A stretch of 64,000 nt of DNA from assembly GCA_963796685.1 (NCBI GenBank), contig CAWCMR010000025.1, positions 1,984,001 through 2,048,000 of the forward strand. The letters are read 5' to 3'. Positions within the stretch are counted from its first letter, which is position 1. Each line of letters opens with the position of its first letter. This DNA comes from an uncultured delta proteobacterium. GTDB taxonomy: Bacteria; Myxococcota_A; Polyangia; Fen-1088. The notes below the pieces were generated by a model, which saw only the letters and a program-made list of their open reading frames with translations, made no database searches and was not told the origin of the DNA. The position numbers and the translations under genes are program-made. This document shows, in pieces, positions 16,993 through 34,071 of this stretch.

Positions 16993-18276
16993 TCACTCGA
17001 CTGGCTTTACCATGCGTCCCATGAAGATGATCGCGCCGCTCTTCACGTCGCGGATCAGGTACAAGAACGGATGGTTCGCATGGAAGATGACCGGTGGCGG
17101 TGGCGGCGGCCCCAAGGCTTGAGACTGGTTCACGAGATCCATCTCGAAAGCAGTTACCGCCGCAGCCGCCGTCCCCTTCTCGTTGGTTTCGAGCCAAGCC
17201 TTCTGGATTGCATCCCCGATGAACAGCCTAGTCTCGGTCACGCCCGAAAAGTCCGCGTGATTGGGATCGAAAGCCTGACGGATCCCCATCGTTTTCAGCA
17301 TGCCTACCAACGGCAACTCTGTCTCCACAGTGAAGCGGGGCAACTCCAGATCCACCTTCTTGTATTCCAGAGCTCCGATCCACCCGGCGTGCGAAGTGCC
17401 CAGCTGGTCCTCGATCCTCTCCAGGCCGTCAACGTCGCTCGGCAGAACCACAATCATCGACAGACCACCCTTGTAGGGCAGCTCGACCAGCTTTGCCCCA
17501 CCCACTTGCGCATACCGGAACATCGAGATCTGTCTCATCATCTTGACCGAGGTCTCTTCCTCCACGGTGGTGAACTTGCCGTCATAGGTCGCGCGTTCGT
17601 CGAACGGCTGCTGCCACCCACCCATCATGTAGACGGCATTGGCCAGGACCATGCGAGCCGCCGGGTTAAGCTTGCCGAGGATTTGCGGAATGCGGCCATG
17701 GGTCTCGTCGGAGGACCATTGGTTAATGGCGGACAGCGCGGCTTCGCGGTTAGTTGCGAAGTCCACCTTAGCCAGCGGCGCGTGAAAACCGTCGCGAAGC
17801 CGTGAAACATACTCCGGCCGCAGCTTGAGGTCTTTCTGCACCCACACGCGATCGGCCACGTTCAGCACCAGACCGTCATTACCGTTGCGCGATGTTAGTG
17901 CGTTGAGAATGGCGGCAAACGATCTATAGGTCTCGTCGAGGTTCGCGGGATCGATGTGCAGCGTGTGCAGCATCTCGTTCTGGGTTTCACCTTCCGCGCC
18001 CGCAGCGACCATGGTCAGCGCGATGGCTGCCCCGGCGGGCGAGCACACAAAGTTGTCCTGGTCTCTTCGAGCCTGGCGGTAGAAGTCGAATCCGAAGGCA
18101 TTGCAGGCCTTCACCGCCCCGTCTACTGTCGAGGCTTTGAAGCTGGAGGCGCAGCCTCCGGCTAACAAGGCCAACGAAGTCGCGGCAATGGCGGCGGAAA
18201 CGCGCATACTCATGACTCCAACACTAGCGAGTCCCATGGAGAACACAAGCGGTGCTGCTTGCTCAAACTGACTCAC
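16993..18276 (-). CDS. Serpin (serine protease inhibitor), lipoprotein
   Basis: NFVCSP, INQWSSDETHGRI, LANAVY, ELPY, LPRF, hinge NEKGTAAAAVT, FHANHPFLYLIRD; lipobox LAGGC; true start may be downstream. Confidence 0.95.
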   Translation of the reverse strand: MSQFEQAAPLVFSMGLASVGVMSMRVSAAIAATSLALLAGGCASSFKASTVDGAVKACNAFGFDFYRQARRDQDNFVCSPAGAAIALTMVAAGAEGETQNEMLHTLHIDPANLDETYRSFAAILNALTSRNGNDGLVLNVADRVWVQKDLKLRPEYVSRLRDGFHAPLAKVDFATNREAALSAINQWSSDETHGRIPQILGKLNPAARMVLANAVYMMGGWQQPFDERATYDGKFTTVEEETSVKMMRQISMFRYAQVGGAKLVELPYKGGLSMIVVLPSDVDGLERIEDQLGTSHAGWIGALEYKKVDLELPRFTVETELPLVGMLKTMGIRQAFDPNHADFSGVTETRLFIGDAIQKAWLETNEKGTAAAAVTAFEMDLVNQSQALGPPPPPPVIFHANHPFLYLIRDVKSGAIIFMGRMVKPVE

Positions 18277-18370
18277 TACCGTCTGGTCGATCAGTCGCAG
18301 ATTTTGCTACAAGCGATTGTCCAGCGATATCAAGGTGTTGCACTGCGGTGGCTCTAATGAGCAAGATATC

Positions 18371-18402
18371 TCTTGACAAGGCGTGATGTGTCAAGATAAA
18401 AA
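18371..18402. promoter_or_regulatory. Palindrome TCTTGACA-N10-TGTCAAGA in the serpin/protease divergent region
   Basis: Perfect 8-bp inverted repeat giving TTGACA on both strands; TAAAAA 18 bp after the plus-strand TTGACA. Confidence 0.55.
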
Positions 18403-20184
18403 GGCACTGTGTCAGAAGGGTGGTAATTCAGATGCATAATGGATCTAAGTCCCGGTGGTTAGTCGCGTTCATTGGTAGCGTCGTCGCCCTGTACTTTGGT
18501 TGCATCTCTGATCCTTTGCCCAAACGCTCCATCTCGACGCCAGATGGTGCCACAGAGGCCGCGCCGCTTATGCCCGAACTCAAGGACCAACCGGGCACAA
18601 GGGTGCTCAAGTGCACGGACGCCTACGGCTCCTCATCGCGCTATGCAGTCGATGATATGACCCGCAAGTTGGTGCGGTTCCCGAGCCTTGCAGCGTCCAT
18701 CGGCCTTACCTCTGTCAGTAACTGTGACGAGGCGATATCCTATGCCGGCGGCTACGATGAGTATTCGGGGCGCAACCCTGGCTTTGAGGAGCGCCCTGAT
18801 CCTAAATGGTCGGGCAATCCACCAACGGTGGACGATCGCGCGATCTTACCGAGGATCAAAGTGAAGGGCGGCGGGAAGACCGACACCTGGGCATTCCCTA
18901 CCAAGGATCATCCCGGCACCAGTCCGGGCCCTGTTGTTAAGATCGAGTCCGTATCTTGGTGGCCAAATGGGCAAGAGCAGATATTCCACAAGACTGCGGC
19001 AGATGGCATTGAATATAACGCCAACCAGTTCTGCGAGATATCCAGCAGCTGTACGGCCTTCTTTATCAACAGAAGTTGGCTATTGACGGCGGCCCACTGT
19101 ATGCAGAACGTGAACAAGTTCCCGGTGACTTACAATCCAGTCATGGTAGACGGACTCCTCACGTGCCAGTATCCTAGCGAGCCTAATCCTGCTTCCACTG
19201 ACCCCAAATACCCCCAAACTGGTGACCACAACGATTACCTTCCGGGCAAGGACATGCATGCGTCACATACGGGAGTTGCCCGCTACGTAATCTCTTGGCC
19301 AGCGAACGGTGATTACCCAAACGACGCTAATCAAGGTGTCTACTCGGTGCGATCAAATGCAGAGGAAATCTACTATGGAGTAGGCCTGTATCAGTTCCCG
19401 CATGAACAGTATGACCCGACGCAGGGTCAGCCCGACCTCAAGCAACCGGAAAACGTGGGCTCGCCAATCAGGCGCGGTCCCGATGTCGCGCTTCTCTCCA
19501 TGGCCAACTGGACCTCAGCGGCCGAATACATGGCACCTGACCTCGACAACGAAGCAGCAATGTACATAAAGGGAAAGCCGACATCGGCGACCGGGAACCC
19601 TGGCGCCGGCCTAACCTTCTGGGTCGCTGGTTATGGGTATAATCCGGCGCAGAACGATGGCGCGCTGTATGACGGAGTTCTGACGGGCAATGTGACATTC
19701 ACGGCTGATTGGCAGGACCAGGACACAAACAACAGGTTCGGCGGCTTCGGTAGCGTTTCGATGAACGTGACCTCTTTGGCCGAAGTCATCGTTTGCTCGG
19801 GAGACTCAGGCTCCCCGCTTTACACGGTGTTCACACCTGTCGATGGCGGACCCAGAAAGTTTATCGCATACGCCGTCCATTCCGGGGCATATCAAGCTCC
19901 ACCGGATGACGGTCGGGCGTGTTCGAAGCCGCCGGGTGACATTCTCTACTGGTCGCGAATAGAGGCTGATGACAGGTTGAGACAGTGGATGAATGTCAAG
20001 ATGGCTAATGGCCCCATAGCAACGACGGAAGATGAACAGGGTAAGTACAACCAGTGCCAACCCATGACCGACGCGGTCAACGGCTTGTACTACAAGTGCT
20101 GGGGAGATCCGTGTGACGGCCTAGATAAAGATGGCTCCTCGCTGTCTAAAATGGACGCGAGGTTGGTTGTTCCGCTAATCTTCC

Positions 20185-21462
20185 GTGGTGCAAAATCCAA
20201 GTTCTGGTCTTGACGTCAATGCGCTTTTTACAGTGGCTCTCGGCATGGTCAATCCATGGGAGGTCGTAGAGCTGAACCTTGACGCCGAGAAGAAGCGCCT
20301 CGACATCAAAGTCGACTTCAAGCCGGGGAGCACCTTCCCTTGCCCTACGTGTGGCGATGCTTGCAAGGTACACGATGCCTCGCCGCAGACATGGCGACAC
20401 CTGAACTTCTTCCAGTACCTCACCTATGTCGAGGCAAGACAACCTCGAACCAAGTGTGACAAGCACGGCGTCTTGACGGTCGATGTGCCATGGGCTCGTG
20501 GCGGGTCGAACTTCACCCTTCTCTTCGAGGCGATGGTGGTGGAACTGGCACGCAACGGCCTCACGGTGGCGGCGGTCGGTCGCATCGTCGGCGAGCATGA
20601 CACGCTCCTGTGGCGCATCCTGGAACACTACGTGGACGAGGCCCGTGAGCGAGCCGACTACAGCCAGGTCGCCGAGGTTGGCGTCGACGAGACTTCGCGG
20701 CAGAAGAACCACGTCTATGTCACGGTCTTTGCCGACATGGTTGCGGCGAAAGTCTTGTTCGTCACGGAGGGGAAAGATCACGGCACGGTGGCTTGTTTCA
20801 AGGACGATCTGCTCGCTCACGGTGGAGACGTGAAGAAGGTGACGGACTTCAGTCTCGACATGTCGCAGGCATTCATCAAGGGCATCTTGGAGACGTTTCC
20901 GGCGGCGCACCTAACCTTCGACAGGTTCCATGTCATCCAACTCATGAACGACGCAATCGATGAGGTGCGAAGGCAGGAGCAGAAGTCCTCTCCGGAGTTG
21001 AAGGGCACGCGCCACGACTGGCTGAGGAACGAGGCCAACATCAAATCCGAGAACAGGGAGCACTTCGCGGTCTTGCGCTCCTCCAAATTGGCCACTGCGC
21101 GGGCCTACCACATCAAGCTCATGCTACAGGAGTTGTATAGCCTGAGTGCGGATGAAGCGGAGGCGTGGTTTCAGCGCTGGTATTTCTGGGCCACCCATAG
21201 CCGATTGGAACCCGTCATCAGGGCCGCCAAGACCCTCAAGGCGCACCAGGCAGGCGTGATGAGATGGTTCATGTCAGGCCTGACGAATGGTCTCTTGGAA
21301 GGACTCAACAGCCTCATCCAGGCGGCCAAGGCGCGGGCGCGTGGCTTTCGCTCCGCGCGCAAAATGAAGACTGTGATTTATGGCTCCTCGCTGTCTAAAA
21401 TGGACGCGAGGTTGGTTGTTCCGCTAATCTTCCGTGGTGCAAAATCCAAGTTCTGGTCTTGA
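20185..21462 (+). CDS. ISL3 transposase of the outer copy, C-terminus replaced by the nested insertion
   Basis: Identical to 21434-22696 up to MKTVIY, then reads into the inner IRL. Confidence 0.85.
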   Translation: MVQNPSSGLDVNALFTVALGMVNPWEVVELNLDAEKKRLDIKVDFKPGSTFPCPTCGDACKVHDASPQTWRHLNFFQYLTYVEARQPRTKCDKHGVLTVDVPWARGGSNFTLLFEAMVVELARNGLTVAAVGRIVGEHDTLLWRILEHYVDEARERADYSQVAEVGVDETSRQKNHVYVTVFADMVAAKVLFVTEGKDHGTVACFKDDLLAHGGDVKKVTDFSLDMSQAFIKGILETFPAAHLTFDRFHVIQLMNDAIDEVRRQEQKSSPELKGTRHDWLRNEANIKSENREHFAVLRSSKLATARAYHIKLMLQELYSLSADEAEAWFQRWYFWATHSRLEPVIRAAKTLKAHQAGVMRWFMSGLTNGLLEGLNSLIQAAKARARGFRSARKMKTVIYGSSLSKMDARLVVPLIFRGAKSKFWS

Positions 21463-22705
21463 CGTCAATGCGCTTTTTACAGTGGCTCTCGGCATGGTCA
21501 ATCCATGGGAGGTCGTAGAGCTGAACCTTGACGCCGAGAAGAAGCGCCTCGACATCAAAGTCGACTTCAAGCCGGGGAGCACCTTCCCTTGCCCTACGTG
21601 TGGCGATGCTTGCAAGGTACACGATGCCTCGCCGCAGACATGGCGACACCTGAACTTCTTCCAGTACCTCACCTATGTCGAGGCAAGACAACCTCGAACC
21701 AAGTGTGACAAGCACGGCGTCTTGACGGTCGATGTGCCATGGGCTCGTGGCGGGTCGAACTTCACCCTTCTCTTCGAGGCGATGGTGGTGGAACTGGCAC
21801 GCAACGGCCTCACGGTGGCGGCGGTCGGTCGCATCGTCGGCGAGCATGACACGCTCCTGTGGCGCATCCTGGAACACTACGTGGACGAGGCCCGTGAGCG
21901 AGCCGACTACAGCCAGGTCGCCGAGGTTGGCGTCGACGAGACTTCGCGGCAGAAGAACCACGTCTATGTCACGGTCTTTGCCGACATGGTTGCGGCGAAA
22001 GTCTTGTTCGTCACGGAGGGGAAAGATCACGGCACGGTGGCTTGTTTCAAGGACGATCTGCTCGCTCACGGTGGAGACGTGAAGAAGGTGACGGACTTCA
22101 GTCTCGACATGTCGCAGGCATTCATCAAGGGCATCTTGGAGACGTTTCCGGCGGCGCACCTAACCTTCGACAGGTTCCATGTCATCCAACTCATGAACGA
22201 CGCAATCGATGAGGTGCGAAGGCAGGAGCAGAAGTCCTCTCCGGAGTTGAAGGGCACGCGCCACGACTGGCTGAGGAACGAGGCCAACATCAAATCCGAG
22301 AACAGGGAGCACTTCGCGGTCTTGCGCTCCTCCAAATTGGCCACTGCGCGGGCCTACCACATCAAGCTCATGCTACAGGAGTTGTATAGCCTGAGTGCGG
22401 ATGAAGCGGAGGCGTGGTTTCAGCGCTGGTATTTCTGGGCCACCCATAGCCGATTGGAACCCGTCATCAGGGCCGCCAAGACCCTCAAGGCGCACCAGGC
22501 AGGCGTGATGAGATGGTTCATGTCAGGCCTGACGAATGGTCTCTTGGAAGGACTCAACAGCCTCATCCAGGCGGCCAAGGCGCGGGCGCGTGGCTTTCGC
22601 TCCGCGCGCAAAATGAAGACTGTGATTTATCTGCTGCTGTCAAAACTGGACTTCAGACTTCCCTGTGCATTTCCCAATTCAATCCATTCCAAATAGCGAG
22701 GAGCC
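21382..22705 (+). mobile_element. Inner intact ISL3 copy (1324 bp)
   Basis: 23-bp IRs (19/23 match); TSD TGATTTAT at 21374-21381 and 22706-22713. Confidence 0.93.
21434..22696 (+). CDS. ISL3 transposase (intact)
   Basis: CPTC...CDKH, VGVDET, SLDMS, FDRFHV, TNGLLEGLNSLIQAAKARARGFR. Confidence 0.95.
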   Translation: MVQNPSSGLDVNALFTVALGMVNPWEVVELNLDAEKKRLDIKVDFKPGSTFPCPTCGDACKVHDASPQTWRHLNFFQYLTYVEARQPRTKCDKHGVLTVDVPWARGGSNFTLLFEAMVVELARNGLTVAAVGRIVGEHDTLLWRILEHYVDEARERADYSQVAEVGVDETSRQKNHVYVTVFADMVAAKVLFVTEGKDHGTVACFKDDLLAHGGDVKKVTDFSLDMSQAFIKGILETFPAAHLTFDRFHVIQLMNDAIDEVRRQEQKSSPELKGTRHDWLRNEANIKSENREHFAVLRSSKLATARAYHIKLMLQELYSLSADEAEAWFQRWYFWATHSRLEPVIRAAKTLKAHQAGVMRWFMSGLTNGLLEGLNSLIQAAKARARGFRSARKMKTVIYLLLSKLDFRLPCAFPNSIHSK

Positions 22706-23065
22706 TGATTTATCTGCTGCTGTCAAAACTGGACTTCAGACTTCCCTGTGCATTTCCCAATTCAATCCATTCCAAATAGCGAGGAGCCATAAAGATAACG
22801 GAAGCCAACACTGGTGCGACGACTACCAATCATGTGTTGGGTCTGGCAAGCAGCTTGATGATCAGCACCGTCCGTGCCTAGGCTGCCCCAATGCCCCGGC
22901 TGACAAGCCTTGCTCGTGTATCATGGGGTACTGCCAGTGGGACTCAGCAAAATTGGCCAACGCCGGTTTCGGAGGTGCGGGTGGAGCAAGTGGCGCGGGG
23001 GGGTCTAGCGGTGAGGGTGGCTCCACAGATGAGGGTGGCTCCACAGGTGAGGGAGGAAGTGCACC

Positions 23066-26000
23066 ATGAAAGGGTATACCGTGATGTTGAGGCGATCCGG
23101 CTCAGCCTTTGCGGTGCACGGCCTCCCGGCCTATCGTGCGCTCTTGGCCGCAACGATTCTGGCTGCAGCCGTCGGCTGCAGCTCGAAGGATGACGCCACT
23201 GGGAATGACCGCACAGGCTCAGCCGTGGTTGCGGCGAGGTCGAAAGCAATCATTACCGTGACCTCCACGCAAACCGCGACCGGAACCGTGACATCAACAG
23301 CCTACGGGACCAATTCCTGGACATCACTCGGGACGGTGACGACCACGGCCCTCGGAACGGTGACCTCGACGGCACTGGGGACCGTGACGACTACGGCGCT
23401 CGGGAGCCAGACCTGGACTTCGTACGGGACCGTTACATCTACCGCGCTCGGAACCCAGACTTGGACGTCGTACGGGACGGTGACATCGACGGCACTTGGG
23501 ACGGTGACATCAACGGCACTTGGGACGGTGACATCAACGGCGCTTGGGACGGTGACTACGACAGCATTGGGGACGGTGACGTCGACAGGGTTGGGAACGG
23601 GAACTGTGACGGCGACCGTAACAAACACTGCGACGATGATATCGACAAGTACGCAATACGTCACGGTGACCGGCACCGTTTCTGGGACGTGGACTGTGAC
23701 GGCGTGGTCCACTGGTTCTTGGACGGGCCCCGCCACCAAGACCCAGACGACGACGAACGTTTCCCCCAATCAGAAGCCTGTTACATCTAGCATCACTGGG
23801 ACCAAGACAGCCACCGATACCTCTGGCTACAATAGCGGAGTAACGAAGACCGTCACGGGCACGGTCACACAATTTGCCACCTGGGCGGGGACAACGACTG
23901 TCACGATGAGCGACACCGCGACCGGGACAAACCACTACAGTGGTTCTGGCACGCGAACGGTCAGCGGGACCGCGTCCAATACCGGAACGGCTACAGGCAC
24001 TTGGACCTACAGACTTACAAGTACGGCAACTCAGACGGCCCACAACACGGTGACGAACTACAATACACTGACGAACTACAATACCGTGACGGTCTATAAC
24101 ACGGTAACGAGCTACAACACGGTGACGGTATCGAATACGCTAACGAACCACAATACCGTGACGGTATCAAATACGCTGACAAACCACAATACCGTGACGA
24201 TTTCCAATACGGTGACAAACTACAACACCGTGACGAATTCGAATACGGTGACAAACTACAACACCGTGACGAATTCGAATACCGGGATCGTCACCACGAC
24301 GGGTACGGGCACGGCGACGGCAACTTCAACCAACACAGTTACGATCATCGTTCCGTTCCCAGTTGGGCTTGGGGTTGACACCAGGGCTGTCGGTGCTAAC
24401 GGGTCGCTTCAGGTGGGGGATCGTTCCAAGTCTCAGATGGGCGACGGCACGCCTGGCCCAATGTCCAACGCAGGGAGCGGTGTGGCAGATATCGGGGTGG
24501 ACTGCCAAATTGGAAGCCTGACCAGCCTAGGTTCGGTCTCGCTGCGGGAACGGGCACATATTCTTGGAAATCTGACGACATCGGGCACGGTGAATCCGCA
24601 AAACGATACCGTGGTTACCGGAACGACAACCCAGAATGCAGTGTTGACGCCGCTCTCGATCATGGCCTGGAGCACAGTGGTTCCGGCGACGAACATGGGC
24701 AACGTCCTACTCTATCCCGGTAGCAATGCCACGGTGAATCCTGGCGCGTACACAGATCTTACCGTCTACACCGGGTCAAACATGACCCTGACTTCTGGCA
24801 CGTACTACGCAACATCGTTCGATATCGAGCCGCAGGCGACGCTGACCCTTAATATGACCTCGGGCCCGATCGTGGTGTACGCGACCGGGGCAATCGTATA
24901 CAGGGGGACCATGGTGAACCAGGGGGGGACTGACGGAGCCTTCATGCTGGTCGAGTTGGGCGACACCGATATGGCCGTCGAGAACACATTCATCGGCACC
25001 ATCGTGGTGCCCAACGCGACGTTGACGTTGGGGGCAACCGTTCCCCTCACACTGCAGGGCCAGTTCTATGGGCAGAATATCGTCGTTCGCCCGGATACGA
25101 CCCTGGCGGCGAAATCGTTCCCGTGGACTGCGCTTAACCCGCCGTCCGGGGGTGAGTGCTGGTCCGCTGACGACACGGACAACGACGGGGTGTGGGATTG
25201 CCATGACAAGTGCCCGTACGATAAGAATAAGACAGAGCCTGGCGTCTGCGGTTGTAACATTCCTGATGTCAATAGCGACAGCGATGTAGCTCCCGACTGC
25301 ATCGATCAATGCCCCACTGATCCTAACAAGACCACGCCGGGACAGTGTGGGTGCCTGGACAAAGGATTTACAGCTGCGGGAACGCCATGCACCGACCGAC
25401 CCTGCCCACAACTTGGGCCACAGGAAGACACGGTGTGCAATGGCATGGGGGCCTGTGGAGATGTGAGCTCGTGCATACCAAATGAGGGGGACTGCAAGCT
25501 CTTAACCCTGGGCCAGATGGCCTATTATTTCTGCGACGCCACCTCGATGCCAGGCGAGCCACCACCTGCGGGGACTCCTCAGGCGAACGCAGAAAACGCC
25601 TGCCGGCAGAAAGGCATGGCGTTGATAAGTGTTGAAGACGCCACGAAGAACGAGAACATCCGGCGGATGCTTTCGGCGCCTATCTGGCTTGGGGCGAATT
25701 CCCTCTCAACCGCGGGTGTGTGGAGATGGGCGACGGCGGCCACAGACGACGGCAGCCAGTTCTGGAGTGGCGGTGCGAACGGGTCTAGGGTTGGAAACAT
25801 GTATGTGAACTGGGCAGCCAATGCCCCAGCGGATGGACAGTGTGCAGCGATGAACCCGGCAGATGGAAAGTGGTTTGCTGCAGACTGCGGATCGAACCTG
25901 GGCTATGTCTGCGAGTATTGGATGCCGTGGGCGAGCGTGCCCCCTCTTGGTGGTCCCCCAGTCCCGCTAGCTCCGCCGCCGATGGATAAGTGTACCCCCG

Positions 26001-28747
26001 AGAGCGCATCGATAGCCCAGCTGCCGCAGCCCGTCGGGAATCCTCCATCGGATGCCGCAATTCTTGCTGCTCAAGACGAGCTGCTGTGGCAGATAGGGCA
26101 CCCCGATGCAGGACAAGGCGCAGCGAGGAATCCTCCTGGGCCAGGCTCAACCTGTCCTCAGCCTGACCCATCGACCCTCGCGCTAGGACCAGTAGGACCA
26201 AGCGGACTGGCCGGGGTAGGCTGTCAGATTACAAACCAGAAGCTAGTTGACGGAGGGGCAGCTGGGGAGTGTACCAGCGATGAGCAGTGTCAGAGGAATT
26301 TTGGCGCCTCATATGTCTGTCGCGAGATCATGGATGATCCGCAGTGTCCAAAGACCTACGACCCGAACACCGACGCTTCACCGTGTAAGGAACGCGCCTG
26401 GTGCGTTGTTCTTGACTGTTCAGGACTGACGCTTCCAGGTGATAATAATCCATGCGACGAGATCCAAATCTGCAATCCGGGCAGCGAGTATGACGCCGGC
26501 GTGGATCCTGACACGAGATGGGATCCCCCGACTTTCGATCCTGGTCCGCTATTCCCGGGTGGCACGGTTCCCGACGCGAGCCCATCATCGGCCTTTAACA
26601 AAGATGATCCGAACCCGGGCGAAGCCGATGCAGGTGTGAACCACCCGTGGTGCAAGTTCACCACGCAGAACCCAGCGATGCCTGCGGCGGATCAACCAGG
26701 CAACAACAGCCCTAGTGCGAAGACTGATCAGAGCAAAGCAATCAGCCTTAGCTTCGACCCCAAGCTCACCTTCAATATCAACATAAGCCCAATTGCGATG
26801 GGCGAGACTAACCTTTCGATCAGGGCAGGGGCGAGTATGGGCGCGACGGTAAAGATCAATTCGTTCCTGGGAATGCCCTCGATGGAGAAGACCATACTCT
26901 ACGCTGGCGCAAGTCTTGCCCTGGAACGGTGCACTTTCCGAACAGACGATACACGACTTGAGCTCTTCGGCATCAATGTCCCGATCGACGACTATGTTCC
27001 TATCCTCAACACATCGATTAACCCGGAGGATCCGAGCACCGGTGACCCGAACCATTCAAACCAGGCGTTGTACAATGTCAGCAAGGCTTGCACGGATGCG
27101 CTGAATACGTACCAGGTCTGGTCCGGTCGCGTGAAGAAGTCTTTCCGCGATGCCCAACAGCTTCTCAAACAGTATCACGCCTTGGCCGGTATGCTGAACA
27201 AGGACAGCCTGTGTGCTGCAATCGAGTCGGTTGGCCCCGAGGTTCATGACTTTCCCGGTGGCGCAAAGTGCTACGAGAATGAATCGGTCGAGGACCTCAT
27301 CAATCGGTTCGTCTACTATTATCAAGCTCCGGGTATCGGACAGGTCACCAAGATGAAGGCCATGGCAGGCGGGCTGAAAGGTGCAAGCGCCGCGCTAATC
27401 CAGGGGATTATCGGAGCGTTGGCGGCGAAATGGAAGGAGGGGGGGCCGGGTGACTCAATGATTGAAATCAATTTCCTGAAGATCGACCATCCATATGCCC
27501 AGACCATCGCAAACGTGCCGTTCGCTATCGGTCCAATACCATGTGTGCTGCAGGTCGACATTGCGGCCAACTATGGCATCGTCGGCAATTTCGGGCTCGA
27601 CCTCAATTTTCCGACGGATATCCTTTTCGGCGACCCACCAGTATATGGACAACAAATAGCGCATGCTCGGGCGCAGGTTGTACCTTATGCGTCGGCGAAG
27701 TTGTCGGCATTTGTCGGAGCTGGATTTGACTACGGACCGTTCTCTGCAACATTAGGTATCGAAGGCTCGGTCAGTCTTGCGAAGATCCGCCTACCGATGT
27801 ACGGGGGAGCGGGCCTTGACGTGGATGTGCTGCAAGATTACCGCCCAATTCCTACTGACGTCGGGCCCCCCGTCTCCATAGCAACAAATGCTTTCAGTTT
27901 CGGGATTCCGAAAAACTTTACCTTCCACGCCACATACGACTATGGGATCAGGGTTGACGTGGACGACATTCTAGCTGGGGCCATCAATGCCCGGCTTCGC
28001 ATCAAGTTCGGCTGGTTTTTCAGCAGGACCTGGCGCAAGCAGATCGCGAAGTTCAATGGCATGAGTTTCCACAAAGACATTCTCGAGGGTCAAGGTACGA
28101 TTGCGAACGTTAACGTCAATTTGAGCCGCAACACACCTCCGCTGCCACCAACGGGGGCTTCTGCCCAGCTGCTTGGGGCTCCCGATGGTACGAAGGTGGA
28201 CGATGCAACGGCTACCACCGCGGTAGGTAACGCCACGATGGGGATTTCGGAGAGCGAAGTGCCATTGACTGTTCTTGCCTATCTGCCCGGCCCGGGCGAC
28301 CCGAACTACCACTATACTCCGGGGACTCTACCCGACGGTGGGGTCGGCGTTGATGGCGGACCGACCGGGCCAGGCCAAGTGACCTTCGAGAAGCTGGCAG
28401 GGTTGTTCTACGATAATCAGTGCTGCGCAAAGCTGGGAGATGCCTGCGAGGTAGACTATACCCCGTACCCGCCTTGCTGCCCAGGCACAGATTGCACTCC
28501 GGATACGAATGCTCCGTCGGTCAAGCACTGTACACAAGGGTGTCGAGCTCAAGGGGTGGAGTGCACAGGCGGTGGCCAGTGCTGCCCAGTCAATGACAGT
28601 GTGATTTGCAACAGTTCTGGTCTCTGCGGGACCTGTTCCAAAGGGCCCCCCGAGGACAGCCTAGGATGCACGACCGATGCGGACTGCTGCTACAACTATG
28701 CCTGCTATCATGGCGACCACTGTGTTTACCAAGGCGTCATCTACTGA
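23066..28747 (+). CDS. Giant 1893-aa multidomain lipoprotein: Thr repeats, beta-helix, TSP3-like repeats, C-type lectin-like domain, beta-sheet domain, Cys-rich tail
   Basis: Lipobox AAVGC; GTVTSTAL and NTVTNY repeats; DTDNDGVWDCHDKCP; IWLGANS..WRW..WAANAP..C..W...C...LGYVCE. Confidence 0.85.
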   Translation: MKGYTVMLRRSGSAFAVHGLPAYRALLAATILAAAVGCSSKDDATGNDRTGSAVVAARSKAIITVTSTQTATGTVTSTAYGTNSWTSLGTVTTTALGTVTSTALGTVTTTALGSQTWTSYGTVTSTALGTQTWTSYGTVTSTALGTVTSTALGTVTSTALGTVTTTALGTVTSTGLGTGTVTATVTNTATMISTSTQYVTVTGTVSGTWTVTAWSTGSWTGPATKTQTTTNVSPNQKPVTSSITGTKTATDTSGYNSGVTKTVTGTVTQFATWAGTTTVTMSDTATGTNHYSGSGTRTVSGTASNTGTATGTWTYRLTSTATQTAHNTVTNYNTLTNYNTVTVYNTVTSYNTVTVSNTLTNHNTVTVSNTLTNHNTVTISNTVTNYNTVTNSNTVTNYNTVTNSNTGIVTTTGTGTATATSTNTVTIIVPFPVGLGVDTRAVGANGSLQVGDRSKSQMGDGTPGPMSNAGSGVADIGVDCQIGSLTSLGSVSLRERAHILGNLTTSGTVNPQNDTVVTGTTTQNAVLTPLSIMAWSTVVPATNMGNVLLYPGSNATVNPGAYTDLTVYTGSNMTLTSGTYYATSFDIEPQATLTLNMTSGPIVVYATGAIVYRGTMVNQGGTDGAFMLVELGDTDMAVENTFIGTIVVPNATLTLGATVPLTLQGQFYGQNIVVRPDTTLAAKSFPWTALNPPSGGECWSADDTDNDGVWDCHDKCPYDKNKTEPGVCGCNIPDVNSDSDVAPDCIDQCPTDPNKTTPGQCGCLDKGFTAAGTPCTDRPCPQLGPQEDTVCNGMGACGDVSSCIPNEGDCKLLTLGQMAYYFCDATSMPGEPPPAGTPQANAENACRQKGMALISVEDATKNENIRRMLSAPIWLGANSLSTAGVWRWATAATDDGSQFWSGGANGSRVGNMYVNWAANAPADGQCAAMNPADGKWFAADCGSNLGYVCEYWMPWASVPPLGGPPVPLAPPPMDKCTPESASIAQLPQPVGNPPSDAAILAAQDELLWQIGHPDAGQGAARNPPGPGSTCPQPDPSTLALGPVGPSGLAGVGCQITNQKLVDGGAAGECTSDEQCQRNFGASYVCREIMDDPQCPKTYDPNTDASPCKERAWCVVLDCSGLTLPGDNNPCDEIQICNPGSEYDAGVDPDTRWDPPTFDPGPLFPGGTVPDASPSSAFNKDDPNPGEADAGVNHPWCKFTTQNPAMPAADQPGNNSPSAKTDQSKAISLSFDPKLTFNINISPIAMGETNLSIRAGASMGATVKINSFLGMPSMEKTILYAGASLALERCTFRTDDTRLELFGINVPIDDYVPILNTSINPEDPSTGDPNHSNQALYNVSKACTDALNTYQVWSGRVKKSFRDAQQLLKQYHALAGMLNKDSLCAAIESVGPEVHDFPGGAKCYENESVEDLINRFVYYYQAPGIGQVTKMKAMAGGLKGASAALIQGIIGALAAKWKEGGPGDSMIEINFLKIDHPYAQTIANVPFAIGPIPCVLQVDIAANYGIVGNFGLDLNFPTDILFGDPPVYGQQIAHARAQVVPYASAKLSAFVGAGFDYGPFSATLGIEGSVSLAKIRLPMYGGAGLDVDVLQDYRPIPTDVGPPVSIATNAFSFGIPKNFTFHATYDYGIRVDVDDILAGAINARLRIKFGWFFSRTWRKQIAKFNGMSFHKDILEGQGTIANVNVNLSRNTPPLPPTGASAQLLGAPDGTKVDDATATTAVGNATMGISESEVPLTVLAYLPGPGDPNYHYTPGTLPDGGVGVDGGPTGPGQVTFEKLAGLFYDNQCCAKLGDACEVDYTPYPPCCPGTDCTPDTNAPSVKHCTQGCRAQGVECTGGGQCCPVNDSVICNSSGLCGTCSKGPPEDSLGCTTDADCCYNYACYHGDHCVYQGVIY
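23282..23593 (+). repeat. 13 x 24-bp coding repeat (GTVTSTAL-type octapeptide)
   Basis: Counted from the translation; synonymous codons differ between units. Confidence 0.9.
24044..24277 (+). repeat. 13 x 18-bp coding repeat (NTVTNY-type hexapeptide)
   Basis: Counted from the translation. Confidence 0.9.
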
Positions 28748-28866
28748 GGACTCAAGTTTACTCGGTCGATGCGAAGTGCCGCGCGGCTTTCGGCTTTGCT
28801 TGTTATCACAGCGCTATACGCATCCGCCCCGAAGCTATCCCATCGATTTCAGGAGAGACACGAGAG

Positions 28867-30780
28867 GTGCAGTTGCGAACGATTCATGCAGTAGCGATTG
28901 GCTGTCTGGCCTCTTGCCAGCCGGCCGGACGGACTAGCGTTAAAGCAGCGCGGGAATCGAGCGCTGTTGGTGCGGCGCACTCGACGCAGACGAGGGCACT
29001 TGCGCCGGCCCCGTCTCCACCGGGGGCGATTTGGGCCGCGGGAAAGGTATACGATTTCCGCGTACATTCGACGGCGATGGTTGACTTTGGCAGCGCGGCA
29101 AGCGGGATCAGCTACGAGCTTGAAGCAAGTCCCAGGATCATGGTGGTCGACCATCGCGGGGATCGTACGACCCTCTATCTACGGCTATTGGGAGTTACGG
29201 TCAGGAATCCCCAGGCCAACGGCGGAGCGAACTTCGACCAGTTGGCGCAGGAGCTTCGTGAAGGCGCATGTCTGGCTGTGTTGTCCAGTGGACGCTTGGT
29301 AGAGCTCGGCTTTCGAAAAGGCGTCTCCAACGCGGCATTGGCCACCTTCAGGCAGCTAGCTTCAAGTCTCCAACTGGCGAAGCCGGGGACTGGTAGCTCC
29401 TGGCAGGCGGAGGAGTACGACACGAGTGGGCAGTATGTGGCGCAATATACTTTTGACGATGGGTCAAAGGTCTATCGCAAGGAGAAACTGCACTACCTGG
29501 CTCTGCTAGGGAGGCCTGTTGTGCCTGGTGTGGGGCCGCTCCAACTGGTTCCAGAGGTCAGAAAGTCAACAGGCGAAATCCGCCTGACCCACGATGGTGC
29601 CCTTGAGCTGGTGGACCTTGAAGACGCAGTGGTCCTGCAGGGCGCGCAGGTGCCCATGCTTTCTGAGACGCATCTCGTGCTCAATCTGACGGCGGTTGGG
29701 ACATCGGGAGTGGCAACCGATCCGACTCGGCTGAGATCAGAGTTCACGATTATGCCGGCCTCGGAGCAAGGCGCCAACATGCCAAGCCTGGAATCTTTGG
29801 ACCGGGCGCGGACGCAAGGGGCTACCTTTCGCGCAATTCTATCCCGCATTGAAGCGGAGCGTGAGACTCGCCAGCGCGAGACATCCAAGAATGTTCCAAA
29901 GCGCAAGAGCCAATCCGCGCACGGACAGCAGCAGATAAGCGTTAGAGCCATTGGTGATGTCGGGCTATTCAATGCCTTGGTTGCGTCGCTTCGCGAGAGC
30001 CAAGAGGCAGTGGATACAGCGGTGCGAATGATCAAGGAGGAGTCTCCCCTTCTCGACGTGCTGATCGACGCTTTGGGCTCGGCCTCCAACCCGGGATGCG
30101 AGGCTGCCTTGACGGGATTGCTGTCGTCCGCAGATTCGGAAACCAAGCCTCGCATTCTGTATGCGCTGTCACAGGCGCCCAGACCTGGCGACAAGGGTGT
30201 GGCGGCGATGAAAGCGTTGCTGGCAGAAGATCCCTTCAGCCAGACCGGCCTTTACGGGCTTGGGAGCTATGCCCGGCGATTCGCTGAGCAGGGGAACAAA
30301 GAAATGGCGGCTGAATTGGGCGAGTTTTTGATTCAGAAGCTGGAGAAAGCGCACGGGGCGACGAACAAGATTACGGCGCTGCGAGCCATTGAGAACTCAG
30401 GATACGCGCCGGCGATTAGCAGCTTGCAGCGATATTTCGACGATCCGGATCCGTTCGTTCGCACCGCCGCTATTCGAGCTCTTCGGCCGATGAAAGATCC
30501 CTTGGTGGCTGATGTCCTTGCTTCTCGAATCAGGTCAGATCATTCTTCCGAGGAGAGGCTGCTTCTCTTGGAGATTGTTGAGAGCAGGGAGCCGTCCAAC
30601 ACGCTGATTGGAGCGGTTGTGGATGCGTCGAGCACTCTCGACGTGAAGGTGCGTCGGCAAGCTGTCGGGCTATTGGCCAAATGGGTTGCCGGGCAACCAC
30701 AGTTGCGACAAGTGCTCAGGAAGATAGGCGAATCCGATTCCGATCCGCAGGTCCGCGCCGCGGCGCGCGTGGATCTCTAG
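28867..30780 (+). CDS. Lipoprotein with beta-rich N-domain and HEAT/superhelical C-domain; resembles the vitellogenin/MTP N-terminal lipid-transport module
   Basis: GTG start with upstream AGGAG, lipobox LASC; EEYDTSGQYVAQY..YRKEK; LIDALGSA, ALRAIENSG, VRTAAIRALR helices. Confidence 0.65.
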   Translation: MQLRTIHAVAIGCLASCQPAGRTSVKAARESSAVGAAHSTQTRALAPAPSPPGAIWAAGKVYDFRVHSTAMVDFGSAASGISYELEASPRIMVVDHRGDRTTLYLRLLGVTVRNPQANGGANFDQLAQELREGACLAVLSSGRLVELGFRKGVSNAALATFRQLASSLQLAKPGTGSSWQAEEYDTSGQYVAQYTFDDGSKVYRKEKLHYLALLGRPVVPGVGPLQLVPEVRKSTGEIRLTHDGALELVDLEDAVVLQGAQVPMLSETHLVLNLTAVGTSGVATDPTRLRSEFTIMPASEQGANMPSLESLDRARTQGATFRAILSRIEAERETRQRETSKNVPKRKSQSAHGQQQISVRAIGDVGLFNALVASLRESQEAVDTAVRMIKEESPLLDVLIDALGSASNPGCEAALTGLLSSADSETKPRILYALSQAPRPGDKGVAAMKALLAEDPFSQTGLYGLGSYARRFAEQGNKEMAAELGEFLIQKLEKAHGATNKITALRAIENSGYAPAISSLQRYFDDPDPFVRTAAIRALRPMKDPLVADVLASRIRSDHSSEERLLLLEIVESREPSNTLIGAVVDASSTLDVKVRRQAVGLLAKWVAGQPQLRQVLRKIGESDSDPQVRAAARVDL

Positions 30781-30812
30781 AGGATGTTTTCTTCTGCATG
30801 TGGAGAAATGGC

Positions 30813-32036
30813 ATGATTGAAGCCAGACACGTCATACGGGTATGCAGCGGCAGCAGGTGGCTCATTGCGGTCGCGGCTTGCATTCTATTATTCGGTGATG
30901 CCTGCCGGGAGTCGGGCAGCGGAGCTGGGGTCCGGGATGGAGGAAAGCAGGACGCATTCGCGAATATGAGCACAAGTGATGTTACTACAAGCGACTTGAA
31001 TGGAAACGACGCGGGTACATCTGGAAACGTGGGAGGCTCCGAGGTAGGCTCGGTGATCGGTGGGGACACTGCCGAGGGCAGAGAGGCGAGCGCCGAGGTC
31101 GACGCACGGTTTCAGGTGGATGTGGGCAGCGGCGCATCAGCGGACGCGCTGGATTCTTCTTCATGGTCGCCAGCCTGTTCGGCATATGCGAAAGCGGCAT
31201 GCACGCTGATAGCCTGTATCCCGAGCGGCTTGCACGTGCTATTCGGCAGCGAGCAGAACTGCGAGAATCGATACGGAGGTGCCGCCTGCGAAGCACAGAT
31301 GACGAGCGTGGGAAGCCATGTCACACAAAGCAGCCTCGCAGCCTGTGCCCAGGCACTGGCAACGGAGAGCTGCGCGGAAGCCAGGACGGAGTTCCCGGCA
31401 GAGTGTTCATGGCAAGGCGATCGAGCGAACAATTCCCCGTGTACCTACGCCCAGCAATGCGAATCAGGGGTGTGCGTGCCGGCCACCGGTACGTTCTGTG
31501 GCACGTGCCAAGCAAAGCTACCCGTTGGCGCATCCTGCCCGTCTACCGCGCATGCGTGCCAGAACGGCCTGGTGTGCACGGATAGCGTTTCATCTGGTGG
31601 CGACTGGTTCTGCACGGAGCCGGGGTCAGAGGGGGATGCGTGCGTATCACCGGCACAGTGCGCTTGGGGGCTAACCTGTTTTGGCGCACGCTGTGTCCGC
31701 GTGAGGAGCCAGGGAGATGCCTGCACTAACACAGTCGAATGCGATCAGGGGCAGGATCTGACGTGCAGTCCGAACGTCAGCGGAATCGCGAGCAGTTGCA
31801 TCCCTCGGACGTACGCCGATGCCGGCGAAAGTTGCGGTACGACGGCAGCGATGGAGTGCCTGGATAACGCGAGCTGCGTCGACAAGACCGGCAGCCCGGC
31901 GGTTACCGGGGTTTGCAGCGCGTCTGCCGCGAACGGGGAATCCTGTGAAATCGGCACTACTAATTGTCAGTATCCAGCCCTTTGCATAGGTGGAAAGTGC
32001 AAAACCGCGGCAGACATGGCCTCATCATGCGATTGA
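30813..32036 (+). CDS. Cys-rich secreted protein/lipoprotein (EB/Dickkopf-like repeats)
   Basis: GGAG RBS, hydrophobic signal ending GDAC, repeated GxxC...C...LxC units. Confidence 0.75.
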   Translation: MIEARHVIRVCSGSRWLIAVAACILLFGDACRESGSGAGVRDGGKQDAFANMSTSDVTTSDLNGNDAGTSGNVGGSEVGSVIGGDTAEGREASAEVDARFQVDVGSGASADALDSSSWSPACSAYAKAACTLIACIPSGLHVLFGSEQNCENRYGGAACEAQMTSVGSHVTQSSLAACAQALATESCAEARTEFPAECSWQGDRANNSPCTYAQQCESGVCVPATGTFCGTCQAKLPVGASCPSTAHACQNGLVCTDSVSSGGDWFCTEPGSEGDACVSPAQCAWGLTCFGARCVRVRSQGDACTNTVECDQGQDLTCSPNVSGIASSCIPRTYADAGESCGTTAAMECLDNASCVDKTGSPAVTGVCSASAANGESCEIGTTNCQYPALCIGGKCKTAADMASSCD

Positions 32037-33580
32037 CTCCCAAGAGAGATTTCAGGATTCGCGCGGATCGCAGCTGGTCGCACGCGTGGAGTATTGCTTG
32101 GGTGGGGACTTTGACGGTCCTTTTCGGCGCGGCCTCGTGCAGTCACGGCTCGCGAGTTTCAACCAAGCAGGATGCCTCAAGCATCGAAGCTGAGGCCTCG
32201 ACGGAGACTGGAGCCGATTTGTCGCCAGACAGCGAAGTGGAAATCGGGCAAGACCGCACCATCGAATTCTCTTCGGACGGCGGCCAGCCATCGTTGGTCG
32301 ATGGCGCTGTCGAGCTCACTGCAGACAGCGGCGGCAGCCAGCTCCTTCCAGATGGTGGCGGATCAGCTACCCAGACTGACTCGGTCGATGGTGGCGGACC
32401 AGTCACGGGCGCAATTCTCTCCACATGGGGGGGACATGGCTTCCCGGGGCGCCAGGTGATCATCGGAAATCAGAGCACTGTGACCGATAGCGTTGGAGGA
32501 TTCTCCTTCGAACAGGTGGCTGAAACCTACGACGTCGTCATGGTTGAGCCGGGCGGATGGGACGTCTCTGTCTACTATGGATTGACGAAGCGAGATCCGA
32601 TTCTGTCAGATAGCGGGAACGGTGGTTCTAGCCTGGATACCCTGATGCAATCCGTCTCGATCACTGGGACACTGACCGCGGATTTTCCGTTCCCGGTCGA
32701 CTCGTCGCATCTTGTCACGCTGTACTATCTCGCTGATCGCGGACACGGAGCTGTGCAGGTCGGGAATGGTCTTGCCAGTGCTGGCCCGGGCTACGGTCCG
32801 ATTTGGGTGGGATGGAATGGAGACACCTCGATCACCGGAAGCCTGGTGGCTGTTGGGCAATACGGATTGGCGGGCGCGCCCTGGACGACGGCCTTTCTGG
32901 CAAGCAAGCCGCTTTCGCTTGCCAGCGGCGACGCGCCCACCGTGGATCTCGCTCTGGCTGAAGTTTCAACCGGGCAGATCGGCGGCACCGTTCAAATGTA
33001 CAACGGCAACGCAGTAGAAGGAGTCGACTTCACCTATCGTCTCACGGGCATGATGGGTGCCATCGAGCTTGGTCGATGCAGTACGACGGGCAAATACAGT
33101 TGCGGGATTCCCGATCTGAGCGCGCTAGGTGGTGACTACTGCGTGTCTATCGTCGATGTTCTGGGGTTTGCCCAAGCGAAAAGGTGTGGCGGCGCGATCG
33201 GCCTGAGCGATTTCTCAGTCCAGGTTCAGGCTCCGCCGGAATTCCAGAAGCCGGCAGACGGTTCGCCCATTACCAAGGACTCAAAGTTGTCATGGACGGG
33301 CATCTCGAATGGCGTCTATATGCTTGACCTGAGCCCTGACAGCCCCTCGGTCGCCTCACCCCACATCCAGGTCTACACGACTGCGACCCAACTTCTCTGG
33401 CCGGACCTTCATGCGATCGGGGTAGAGTTTCCGGCAGGCGCGACCTATACCTGCCAGGTTTCCGGGCTCTCGCCATATGCGTCGATAGACGACCTGGCGT
33501 CATCGCGAGGGTTGTTCAACGATCAGATGGATCGTCAATGGCTAGATTCCACCACGATAGACCTCTCCCTGGTTCAATAG
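32027..33580 (+). CDS. Beta-sandwich-rich lipoprotein of unknown function
   Basis: Lipobox GAASC; TVTDSVGGFSFEQV..YDV resembles carboxypeptidase-regulatory/Ig-like folds; overlaps the previous stop. Confidence 0.7.
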   Translation: MRLTPKRDFRIRADRSWSHAWSIAWVGTLTVLFGAASCSHGSRVSTKQDASSIEAEASTETGADLSPDSEVEIGQDRTIEFSSDGGQPSLVDGAVELTADSGGSQLLPDGGGSATQTDSVDGGGPVTGAILSTWGGHGFPGRQVIIGNQSTVTDSVGGFSFEQVAETYDVVMVEPGGWDVSVYYGLTKRDPILSDSGNGGSSLDTLMQSVSITGTLTADFPFPVDSSHLVTLYYLADRGHGAVQVGNGLASAGPGYGPIWVGWNGDTSITGSLVAVGQYGLAGAPWTTAFLASKPLSLASGDAPTVDLALAEVSTGQIGGTVQMYNGNAVEGVDFTYRLTGMMGAIELGRCSTTGKYSCGIPDLSALGGDYCVSIVDVLGFAQAKRCGGAIGLSDFSVQVQAPPEFQKPADGSPITKDSKLSWTGISNGVYMLDLSPDSPSVASPHIQVYTTATQLLWPDLHAIGVEFPAGATYTCQVSGLSPYASIDDLASSRGLFNDQMDRQWLDSTTIDLSLVQ

Positions 33581-33594
33581 GGCCAGAAACCGTC

Positions 33595-34071
33595 ATGCTG
33601 TTTCGCCGCTCTAGACATTGCCAGGTTGGGCTCCTTGGCTGTCTCGCAGTAGTGGCAGCCATGGCCGGCGCTGGATGCAAGCCGACGGGAAACTCGCAGC
33701 AGACCCACACCGGGACCGTCGAGCCTCAGCGGGATGCAGTGGTCGCGCCCAGGGCGCCCGCCGTGAAGGCCGCATCAACTCCGACGAACGAGAAGACAAG
33801 CGACAAGACCCGCAAGTGCGAAGAAATCTGCCGGATAGCAGTCCCGCTCCATTGCACTCACCAAGACGAATGTGTGCAGGGATGCGAGTCCATGGCCTCG
33901 GCGCCTATGTGCAAGGCCGAGCTCAATCGAATGTATGACTGTTTGCTTCGGCAGCCGGTCGAGAGCTGGGAGTGCGATGAAAACGGGGTCGGTGCCATCC
34001 GTGACCCGTTCTGTGGCAAGGAGCAAGCTGCAGTGGTGAATTGTGTAGGGGGCAACCTCGATAGGATGTGA
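33595..34071 (+). CDS. Small Cys-rich lipoprotein
   Basis: Lipobox GAGC; 10 Cys in the C-terminal ~90 aa. Confidence 0.7.
   Translation: MLFRRSRHCQVGLLGCLAVVAAMAGAGCKPTGNSQQTHTGTVEPQRDAVVAPRAPAVKAASTPTNEKTSDKTRKCEEICRIAVPLHCTHQDECVQGCESMASAPMCKAELNRMYDCLLRQPVESWECDENGVGAIRDPFCGKEQAAVVNCVGGNLDRM

Follow-up and report, generated by a model that had tools for sequence, protein, structure and literature searches.

A predicted two-gene lipoprotein module of Myxococcota with likeness to large lipid transfer proteins

Is there a bacterial relative of the large lipid transfer proteins (LLTPs), and could it be divided over two genes? The question is raised by two adjacent genes of an uncultured delta proteobacterium (GTDB: Myxococcota_A, Polyangia, Fen-1088; GenBank assembly GCA_963796685.1, contig CAWCMR010000025.1). 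The analysed stretch, hereafter the window, comprises 64,000 nucleotides (contig positions 1,984,001 to 2,048,000 of the forward strand), and all coordinates refer to it. An initial annotation, made from the letters alone, had proposed that a lipoprotein of 637 residues supplies the beta-barrel and the helical superhelix of an LLTP, while a giant lipoprotein encoded directly upstream supplies the sheets lining the lipid cavity. As that annotation had it, both are lipoproteins: a signal peptide and a lipobox cysteine can be read directly at the N-terminus of both translations (AAVGC in the giant, CLASC in the 637-residue protein). The bacterial LLTP-like two-gene module is real and apparently undescribed; no description of bacterial LLTP relatives, their barrel or their conserved partner was found in the full-text literature, a search that had subscription journals and supplementary files outside its range.

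The 637-residue protein and the LLTP N-terminal module

All peptides that the initial annotation quoted from the 637-residue protein are present, i.e. EEYDTSGQYVAQY...YRKEK (residues 182-207), LIDALGSA, LYGLGSYARR, ALRAIENSG..ISSLQRY and VRTAAIRALR. The Pfam family Vitellogenin_N is matched with an expectation value (E) of 4.2e-11 (42.6 bits against a cut-off of 24); the match covers the helical part only (residues 366-544 on profile positions 324-525), and the family HEAT_2 is matched at 2.3e-18. Furthermore, designed HEAT (alphaRep) proteins outscore MTP when the PDB is searched with the whole protein or with the family profile. This ranking would fit a spurious resemblance, in which the Vitellogenin_N match reflects HEAT similarity only and the adjacency of the two genes is an accident of a mobile island; the position of the locus, in a stretch of lower G+C (guanine plus cytosine) content beside two ISL3 copies, fits this explanation as well. 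Because a Vitellogenin_N match can be obtained from HEAT repeats alone, the beta-rich N-domain was searched separately.

The barrel-only profile (A6) was built from 37 N-domains without the helical part. At E<=10 it has five matches in the PDB, and the best four of them are LLTPs: lipovitellin (1LSH) at 6.8e-7, with profile positions 35-164 on residues 2-135, two entries of MTP at 1e-3, and honey bee vitellogenin at 0.08. Taken singly, 20 of the 37 N-domains match PF01347, the best at 3.1e-9. The N-domain of the window protein has no Pfam match on its own, a point in favour of a spurious resemblance, but the HEAT-free profile that leads to lipovitellin, MTP and vitellogenin argues against it. 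In the helical domain, MTP is matched by the whole-family profile over a single colinear stretch (357-540 against 325-516; E 1.3e-8), and lipovitellin, again at colinear positions, has an E of 5e-4.

On the structural level, the ESM Atlas contains a model not of the window protein itself but of its 76%-identical homologue P0005 (pLDDT 0.73, pTM 0.52). Among the structural neighbours of this model are three eukaryotic clusters (MTP twice, vitellogenin once), which are aligned in their Vitellogenin_N part over 492-524 residues spanning 43-629, with template modelling (TM) scores of 0.57-0.62 by query. For the two MTP clusters the score is 0.61-0.62 and the alignment runs from residue 43-54 onward; a whole-length alignment of this kind is difficult to reconcile with HEAT similarity only. 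Since the domain-wise sequence evidence and the whole-module structural evidence agree, we consider the 637-residue protein, as judged from profiles and a homologue model, a true relative of the LLTP N-terminal module in both barrel and helical domain. The barrel and superhelix of LLTP type that had been suggested by eye are thereby recovered; the comparison with lipovitellin, MTP and Vitellogenin_N gives matches at the level of sequence profiles and, for the homologue model, at the level of structure.

The initial annotation had also pointed to an LLTP-type motif of the form ExDxxGxCxxxY in the barrel, and this claim holds in part. The motif EEYD..G.Y.A.Y is invariant in all eight close homologues, residues D185, G188 and Y194 are invariant in all 37 N-domains, and in the HMMER alignment EEYDxTGxYxxxY falls on EVDISGNCKVTY of MTP. 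What does not hold is the cysteine: the conserved disulfide cysteine of the LLTP barrel, contained in EVDISGNCKVTY, is a tyrosine in the bacterial family, and this residue (Y190) is invariant in the eight close homologues. In the eukaryotic proteins the barrel disulfide links Cys174 and Cys194 of MTP, and Cys156 and Cys182 of lipovitellin (PMC6717300).

The same source gives the layout of MTP as a half barrel (residues 21-297), followed by a helical domain (298-603) and, at the C-terminus, by a pair of sheets that holds the lipid (604-884). In MTP, the A and C sheets thus belong to one and the same chain. The bacterial protein, by contrast, ends after the helical domain; the first two LLTP domains are present, the C-terminal sheets are not. 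Barrel and helical domain are joined by a Lys/Arg-rich linker, which is gapped and variable in alignment A1 and absent in the homologues P0009 and P0010. It sits where insect vitellogenin has a variable linker between the same two domains. One may speculate that the linker is a site of processing or cleavage; genes of trypsin-like proteases recur near the giant genes.

The size of the bacterial family depends on the search method. A word-indexed search with the 637-residue protein returned only eight relatives; an exhaustive profile search returned 7948 matches at E<=1e-3 and 525 at E<=1e-30, where some of the 7948 are plain HEAT proteins and each representative stands for a cluster at 50% identity. 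The best 150 of the 7948 are 243-695 residues long and mostly match end to end, and full matches among the open frames of genomes have 573-740 residues. No fused form of barrel, clamp and sheet was found among proteins of 1127-3215 residues, which yielded two HEAT-repeat proteins only; according to the tool's own warning, this is weak evidence. As far as these matches can tell, we are dealing with a large family of stand-alone bacterial proteins of about 630 residues that lack lipid-binding sheets of their own. Clusters in the Atlas have 50-165 members, mostly from Myxococcota and Pseudomonadota, and carry PF13646 plus PF01347 on 12-75% of their members. The homologues are 23-33% identical to the window protein, except two close relatives at 76% and 42%. 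The protein belongs to a set of bacterial HEAT-repeat lipoproteins labelled 'Lipoprotein amino terminal region', labels that are automatic only.

Two other explanations of the protein were considered and dropped. A recent transfer from an animal, or contamination, disagrees with the 525 representatives at E<=1e-30, with the identities of 23-33% and with the presence of an own bacterial partner gene. A toxin-immunity pair disagrees with the nature of the 637-residue protein: it is a lipoprotein, it is exported, and its LLTP fold is conserved, whereas an immunity protein would be small and cytoplasmic.

A conserved beta-rich domain in the partner protein

A scan of metagenome contigs yielded 64 loci with the alignment of the giant and two with the alignment of the vitellogenin-like protein; with one locus (L001) from the second scan, the set of giant loci comprises 65. 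A vitellogenin-like gene is present in 47 of them, and in all 20 that provide at least 2.5 kb on both sides of the giant open reading frame (ORF); the 18 loci without such a gene all have a short flank. The 42 full-length vitellogenin-like neighbours reduce to 36 at less than 85% identity. Relative to the giant, the vitellogenin-like gene lies downstream on the same strand in 35 loci, upstream on the same strand in five, and in divergent orientation in seven. The existence of three arrangements argues for a linkage kept by selection rather than for one inherited operon. Furthermore, the C-terminal domain of the giant occurs in six out of 401 genomes of the phylum at E<=1e-5, and all four strong matches are located on a contig with a vitellogenin-like gene.

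The pairing extends beyond the giants. The distant set comprises 21 loci: one of Archangium gephyra (L002), and 20 regions surrounding vitellogenin-like genes, taken from 17 genomes. The profile of the giant's C-terminal domain has a match in nine of these, eight times in the gene beside the vitellogenin-like gene; in locus L089 the match is on the opposite strand, at a distance of about 3 kb. A single round of local profile iteration, made on the beta-rich core, raises the number of matched loci to 17, mostly with the match in the directly adjoining gene and at or near its C-terminal end (the two weakest matches have E 3.4e-4 and 3.9e-4). In an eighteenth locus (L099), the neighbour is homologous to two core-bearing partners. 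The gene pair is hence conserved among the giants as well as in 18 of the 21 distant loci, and the core-bearing partners range from 332 to more than 2680 residues.

Comparison by hhalign of the giant's domain with five small partners gives a probability of 97.4% (E 1.2e-11) over giant residues ~1465-1690. The conserved element is therefore exactly the strand region to which the initial annotation had pointed, as the core profile and alignment A7 also indicate. The two amphipathic segments quoted there, VPFAIGPIPCVLQVDIAANYGI and VVPYASAKLSAFVGAGFDYGPFSATLGIEGSVSL, are present at residues ~1483-1583, and a hydrophobic-moment map of giant residues 1190-1720, for which neither Pfam nor the PDB has a relative, was averaged over 20 homologues and has beta periodicity at 1221-1305, helical periodicity at 1336-1440 and again beta periodicity at 1480-1650. 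Judged from these alignments, the vitellogenin-like lipoprotein is tied to one conserved beta-rich partner domain. A spurious resemblance with accidental adjacency does not account for a pairing that holds in every one of the 20 informative loci, occurs in three arrangements and recurs in distant relatives, and we regard it as very improbable.

Apart from this domain, the giant is a composite protein; its 43 homologues have 1067-1965 residues, and the region conserved among them covers residues ~430-1893. The postulated stalk corresponds to a variable N-terminal region of Thr-rich tandem repeats (periods of 24/48 and 18/36/72 nucleotides; peptides such as GTVTSTAL and NTVTNY), which is not conserved in the homologues and may be an extended, possibly glycosylated spacer. 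For residues ~430-700, no Pfam family was found at E<=0.1. The only part with a known family is the C-type lectin-like domain that had already been recognized: Pfam Lectin_C (PF00059) is matched at 9.7e-11 (42.8 bits against a cut-off of 22.6), and the giant family profile matches C-type lectins in the PDB down to 5.5e-37. With C-type lectin-like domains of bacterial surface proteins the giant shares the Lectin_C match and the conserved Cys/Trp framework. Sugar-binding C-type lectins of animals carry EPN or QPD and WND motifs. At these positions, NAP and WFA are found in the giant, and GAPG and WxD in the consensus of its family; because of these replacements a Ca2+-dependent sugar site is doubtful. 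The C-terminal tail consists of several Cys-rich modules, and the homologue P0179 has a precomputed PF07740 (spider-toxin-like knottin) label. A partner of 789 residues in the distant set (L093:9853-12219, genome G236) has both a C-type lectin domain (4e-11) and Cys-rich repeats of the Dictyostelium type (7e-13); lectin and core are thus also joined in a protein that is not of the giant family and is much smaller.

Features of the two-gene module and its surroundings in the window
Feature	Position	Strand	Evidence
Trypsin-like serine protease gene, recurrent near giant genes	18420..20213	+	Pfam Trypsin 3.1e-9
Giant lipoprotein gene, 1893 residues, partner protein of the module	23066..28747	+	ORF, translation
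Thr-rich tandem repeats, variable N-terminal 'stalk' (arrays 23325-23586 and 24042-24282)	23325..24282	+	Tandem Repeats Finder
Conserved region, residues ~430-700, then Cys/Asp-rich repeats	24353..25165	+	42 aligned homologues
C-type lectin-like domain, residues 840-950	25583..25915	+	Pfam Lectin_C, PDB profile matches
C-terminal domain of the giant, residues ~1227-1675, beta-helical-beta	26744..28090	+	Alignment A3, hydrophobic-moment map
Beta-rich conserved core, residues ~1465-1690, common to partner proteins of vitellogenin-like genes	27458..28135	+	hhalign, alignment A7
C-terminal Cys-rich (knottin-like) tail	28403..28744	+	Many (nearly) invariant cysteines, 42 homologues
Vitellogenin_N-like lipoprotein gene, 637 residues	28867..30780	+	ORF, Pfam, homologue searches
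Predicted LLTP-type N-terminal beta-barrel, residues ~56-335	29032..29871	+	Barrel-only profile A6, PF01347 matches, Atlas model of P0005
EEYDTSGQYVAQY motif inside the beta-barrel	29410-29448	+	Translation
Variable Lys/Arg-rich linker, barrel to helical domain, residues ~336-365	29872..29961	+	Alignment A1
Predicted LLTP-type helical (HEAT-like) domain, residues 366-637	29962..30777	+	Pfam, MTP profile match
'd1', secreted Cys-rich or beta-rich ORF, some clusters only	30681-32036	+	BLAST matches in 4 loci
'd2', secreted Cys-rich or beta-rich ORF, some clusters only	31964-33580	+	BLAST matches in 6 loci
'd3', small Cys-rich lipoprotein, 177 residues, frequent third gene of giant-type clusters	33538..34071	+	Homologue search

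Cavity sheet, docking element or membrane barrel

The observations to be explained are a homologue of the LLTP N-terminal module, the lack of sheets in its chain, and its conserved pairing with a beta core. We propose a two-chain LLTP-like machine, a reading of profiles and models that we consider evenly poised between true and false. According to this model, the 637-residue lipoprotein is the N-terminal module without own sheets, i.e. half beta-barrel and helical clamp. The beta-rich C-terminal domain of the giant would have a sheet-like fold, bind physically and dock into the barrel pit and the helical clamp, like the A and C sheets of MTP and lipovitellin. By this docking, a hydrophobic pocket with a lipid ligand would be formed in trans. 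The remainder of the giant (Thr-rich stalk, conserved region, Cys-rich repeats, lectin-like domain and knottin-like tail) would be exposed at the surface, hold the pocket off the envelope and aim it at a target surface, and the assembly might act as an envelope-anchored device for the capture of lipids or lipoglycans. Vitellogenins are cleaved into chains that remain associated.

What is more challenging is the identification of the core as a cavity sheet. The Atlas model of the 393-residue Archangium partner (pLDDT 0.60, pTM 0.48) has as its best named structural match a eukaryotic vitellogenin cluster, in the part of PF09172 (Vit_open_b-sht), over 281 residues spanning 14-390 with a TM score of 0.47 by query. 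Two bacterial clusters rank ahead of it, one from Bacteroidota (474 residues, TM 0.62) and one named 'Lipoprotein' with 298 members from Pseudomonadota (645 residues, TM 0.54); outer-membrane barrels rank below (TM 0.26-0.38). Independently, a search of 14 partners against Pfam at E<=1 listed 12 matches, and the only match of the partner in L100 (977 residues) is PF09172 at E 0.11, located at the start of the core. If about five of the 24,736 Pfam families belong to the LLTPs, as we assume, the chance of meeting one among 12 random matches is roughly 0.002. Both signals are weak, but neither depends on the other or on the gene adjacency, and they concern the one family that the hypothesis predicts; we take them as suggestive.

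Several findings weigh against a pocket formed in this way. The core profiles A3, A7 and A4 match no LLTP sheet and no solved structure in the PDB, and 20 giant C-terminal domains match no LLTP family of Pfam at E<=10. The sole structural match stays below a TM score of 0.5, comes from a model with the modest pLDDT and pTM values given above, and stands in the same list as outer-membrane barrels; the modelled Archangium protein is, moreover, a distant homologue, with about 160 residues aligned to the giant. The PF09172 match in L100 comprises 21 residues and 12.2 bits, below the cut-off of 23.7. The conserved core has about 130-220 residues, compared with the 280 that make up MTP's lipid-binding domain. 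Three of the 21 distant vitellogenin-like loci (L094, L095 and L107) contain no recognisable partner. Finally, the replacement of the barrel's disulfide cysteine by tyrosine belongs on this side. The proposal of the initial annotation that the giant supplies the cavity sheets thus has a structural match and a sub-threshold family match on one side, and negative profile searches of PDB and Pfam on the other; an identification of the core with an LLTP cavity sheet stays at the level of a suggestion.

The absence of a sequence link between the core and the LLTP sheets would also be expected if the 637-residue protein were a scaffold or chaperone, i.e. a homologue of the LLTP N-terminal module without lipid pocket that folds, anchors or presents its partner, a surface adhesin or lectin, with the core as a docking tag only. 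The same pairing evidence fits this explanation. Outside the C-terminal core, the partners are diverse, with the range of lengths given above and with lectin, immunoglobulin-like or Cys-rich parts, which fits a common docking element on diverse cargo; and there is an analogy in the barrel and helical domains of MTP, which are reported to bind apoB (PMC6717300). However, small partners of 332-430 residues are little more than the beta-rich domain and hence offer no obvious cargo, and the structural and the Pfam lead both point specifically to the open sheet of vitellogenin. We regard a scaffold or chaperone function as rather unlikely.

The outer-membrane barrels in the structural list bring up a further alternative: the core could be a membrane-inserted beta-barrel or pore element, and the lipoprotein its plug, cap or regulator, as in pairs of outer-membrane lipoprotein and barrel. 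The strands of the core are amphipathic and rich in Gly and Ala, and aromatic residues occur close to the core's end; TonB-dependent receptor barrels and DUF6850/DUF5916 proteins are found among the structural neighbours of the small partner, and some small partners end in Y or F. Nevertheless, these barrel matches rank below the vitellogenin sheet, and a C-terminal aromatic signal is not consistent among the small partners. In the giants, moreover, about 200 residues with a disulfide-rich tail come after the core, and lectin modules, which are disulfide-rich as well, come before it. A membrane barrel therewith appears improbable.

Genomic setting and relation to eukaryotic LLTPs

According to ORFs and translations, positions 23066-34071 on the plus strand form a row of genes for exported proteins. 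The gene of the 637-residue protein begins with GTG, a start that it shares with the homologue P0005, and is preceded about 10 nucleotides upstream by a Shine-Dalgarno-like AGGAG. NCBIfam has no family for any gene of the cluster, including the 637-residue protein and the giant. Two of the downstream ORFs, d1 and d2, have no Pfam or NCBIfam family above cut-off. The third, d3, likewise lacks a family in Pfam and NCBIfam; its C-terminal part of about 85 residues is conserved and cysteine-rich. A search of 86 loci gave homologues of d3 in 22, which are without exception giant-type; they often lie directly after the vitellogenin-like gene and, in seven loci, overlap its end. The protein may be a third subunit of the module. 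Homologues of the trypsin-like protease occur near giant genes in ten giant-type loci (L024, L025, L027-L030, L032, L034, L035 and L047). L034 carries two of them, and the closest metagenome locus, L030, has its homologue immediately upstream of the giant.

In the window, two nearly identical tandem copies of an ISL3-family transposase (20131-21405 and 21380-22651; alignment score 1259 over 1272 aligned bases) lie downstream of the trypsin-like gene and ahead of the giant. The G+C content is 56-60% in the block from 18 to 34 kb, compared with 61-69% on either side. Of the 12 other genomes of the genus that were searched, 11 lack the genes of positions 18000-34000; this block, with its lower G+C content, therefore looks like an acquired accessory island. 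The vitellogenin-like gene itself is accessory and patchy, as it has a match at E<=1e-10 in at least 19 of 401 sampled genomes of the phylum (a floor, since a stricter filter was used) and real homologues in only one of the 12 genomes of the genus, where they consist of a decayed copy and a paralogue. In the decaying cluster copy of that genome (L005; G004:C7:265519-269016), a TAG stop breaks the vitellogenin-like gene, and a single ORF matches d1 in one part and d2 in another. An intact paralogous pair (L105) is present in this genome as well, in which the gene of a 1023-residue partner is followed by a vitellogenin-like gene of 630 residues.

Going by sequence, the module is LLTP-like in its N-terminal part, but bacterial, anchored to the envelope as predicted lipoproteins, and split over two genes. 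MTP (large subunit, MTP alpha; PDB: 6I7S, 8EOJ), the smallest LLTP, works in a complex of two chains, with its lipid-binding sheets braced by a second protein (PMC6717300). That second protein is PDI, whereas the bacterial partner is a protein with a beta-rich domain; MTP resides in the lumen of the endoplasmic reticulum, whereas the bacterial protein is predicted to be a lipoprotein of the cell envelope. Vitellogenin and lipovitellin (PDB: 1LSH, 9ENR) provide the best sequence match of the barrel, from lipovitellin residue 2, and their open beta-sheet ranks first among the named structural matches of a small partner. The bacterial module takes two genes, whereas vitellogenin is encoded by one, of 1300-1900 residues, which includes further sheets as well as a vWD domain.

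LLTPs are treated as an animal invention that enabled circulating lipoproteins and yolk. The bacterial module raises the question of where the LLTP architecture originated, and whether an LLTP pocket can be built from two chains. A more far-reaching model, which we advance tentatively and consider doubtful, is that the bacterial two-gene module is the ancestor of the animal LLTPs (MTP, apoB, vitellogenin), or has an ancestor in common with them. The lipid pocket of the bacterial form would be assembled from the barrel-plus-clamp lipoprotein and a separate protein with an open sheet, and the animal form would be a fusion; the giants of soil and sediment Myxococcota would then be stalked, lectin-aimed surface devices that pull lipids or lipoglycans from the envelopes of other cells, for instance during predation. 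The pair from Archangium gephyra, with 672 residues (L002:9764-11779) and 393 residues (L002:11958-13136), provides a small, cultivable test case, far easier to express and to solve than apoB or vitellogenin. If the capture of lipids holds true, the module would represent a new kind of lipid-handling device of the bacterial envelope, beside the Lol, Mla, Lpt and AsmA-like systems.

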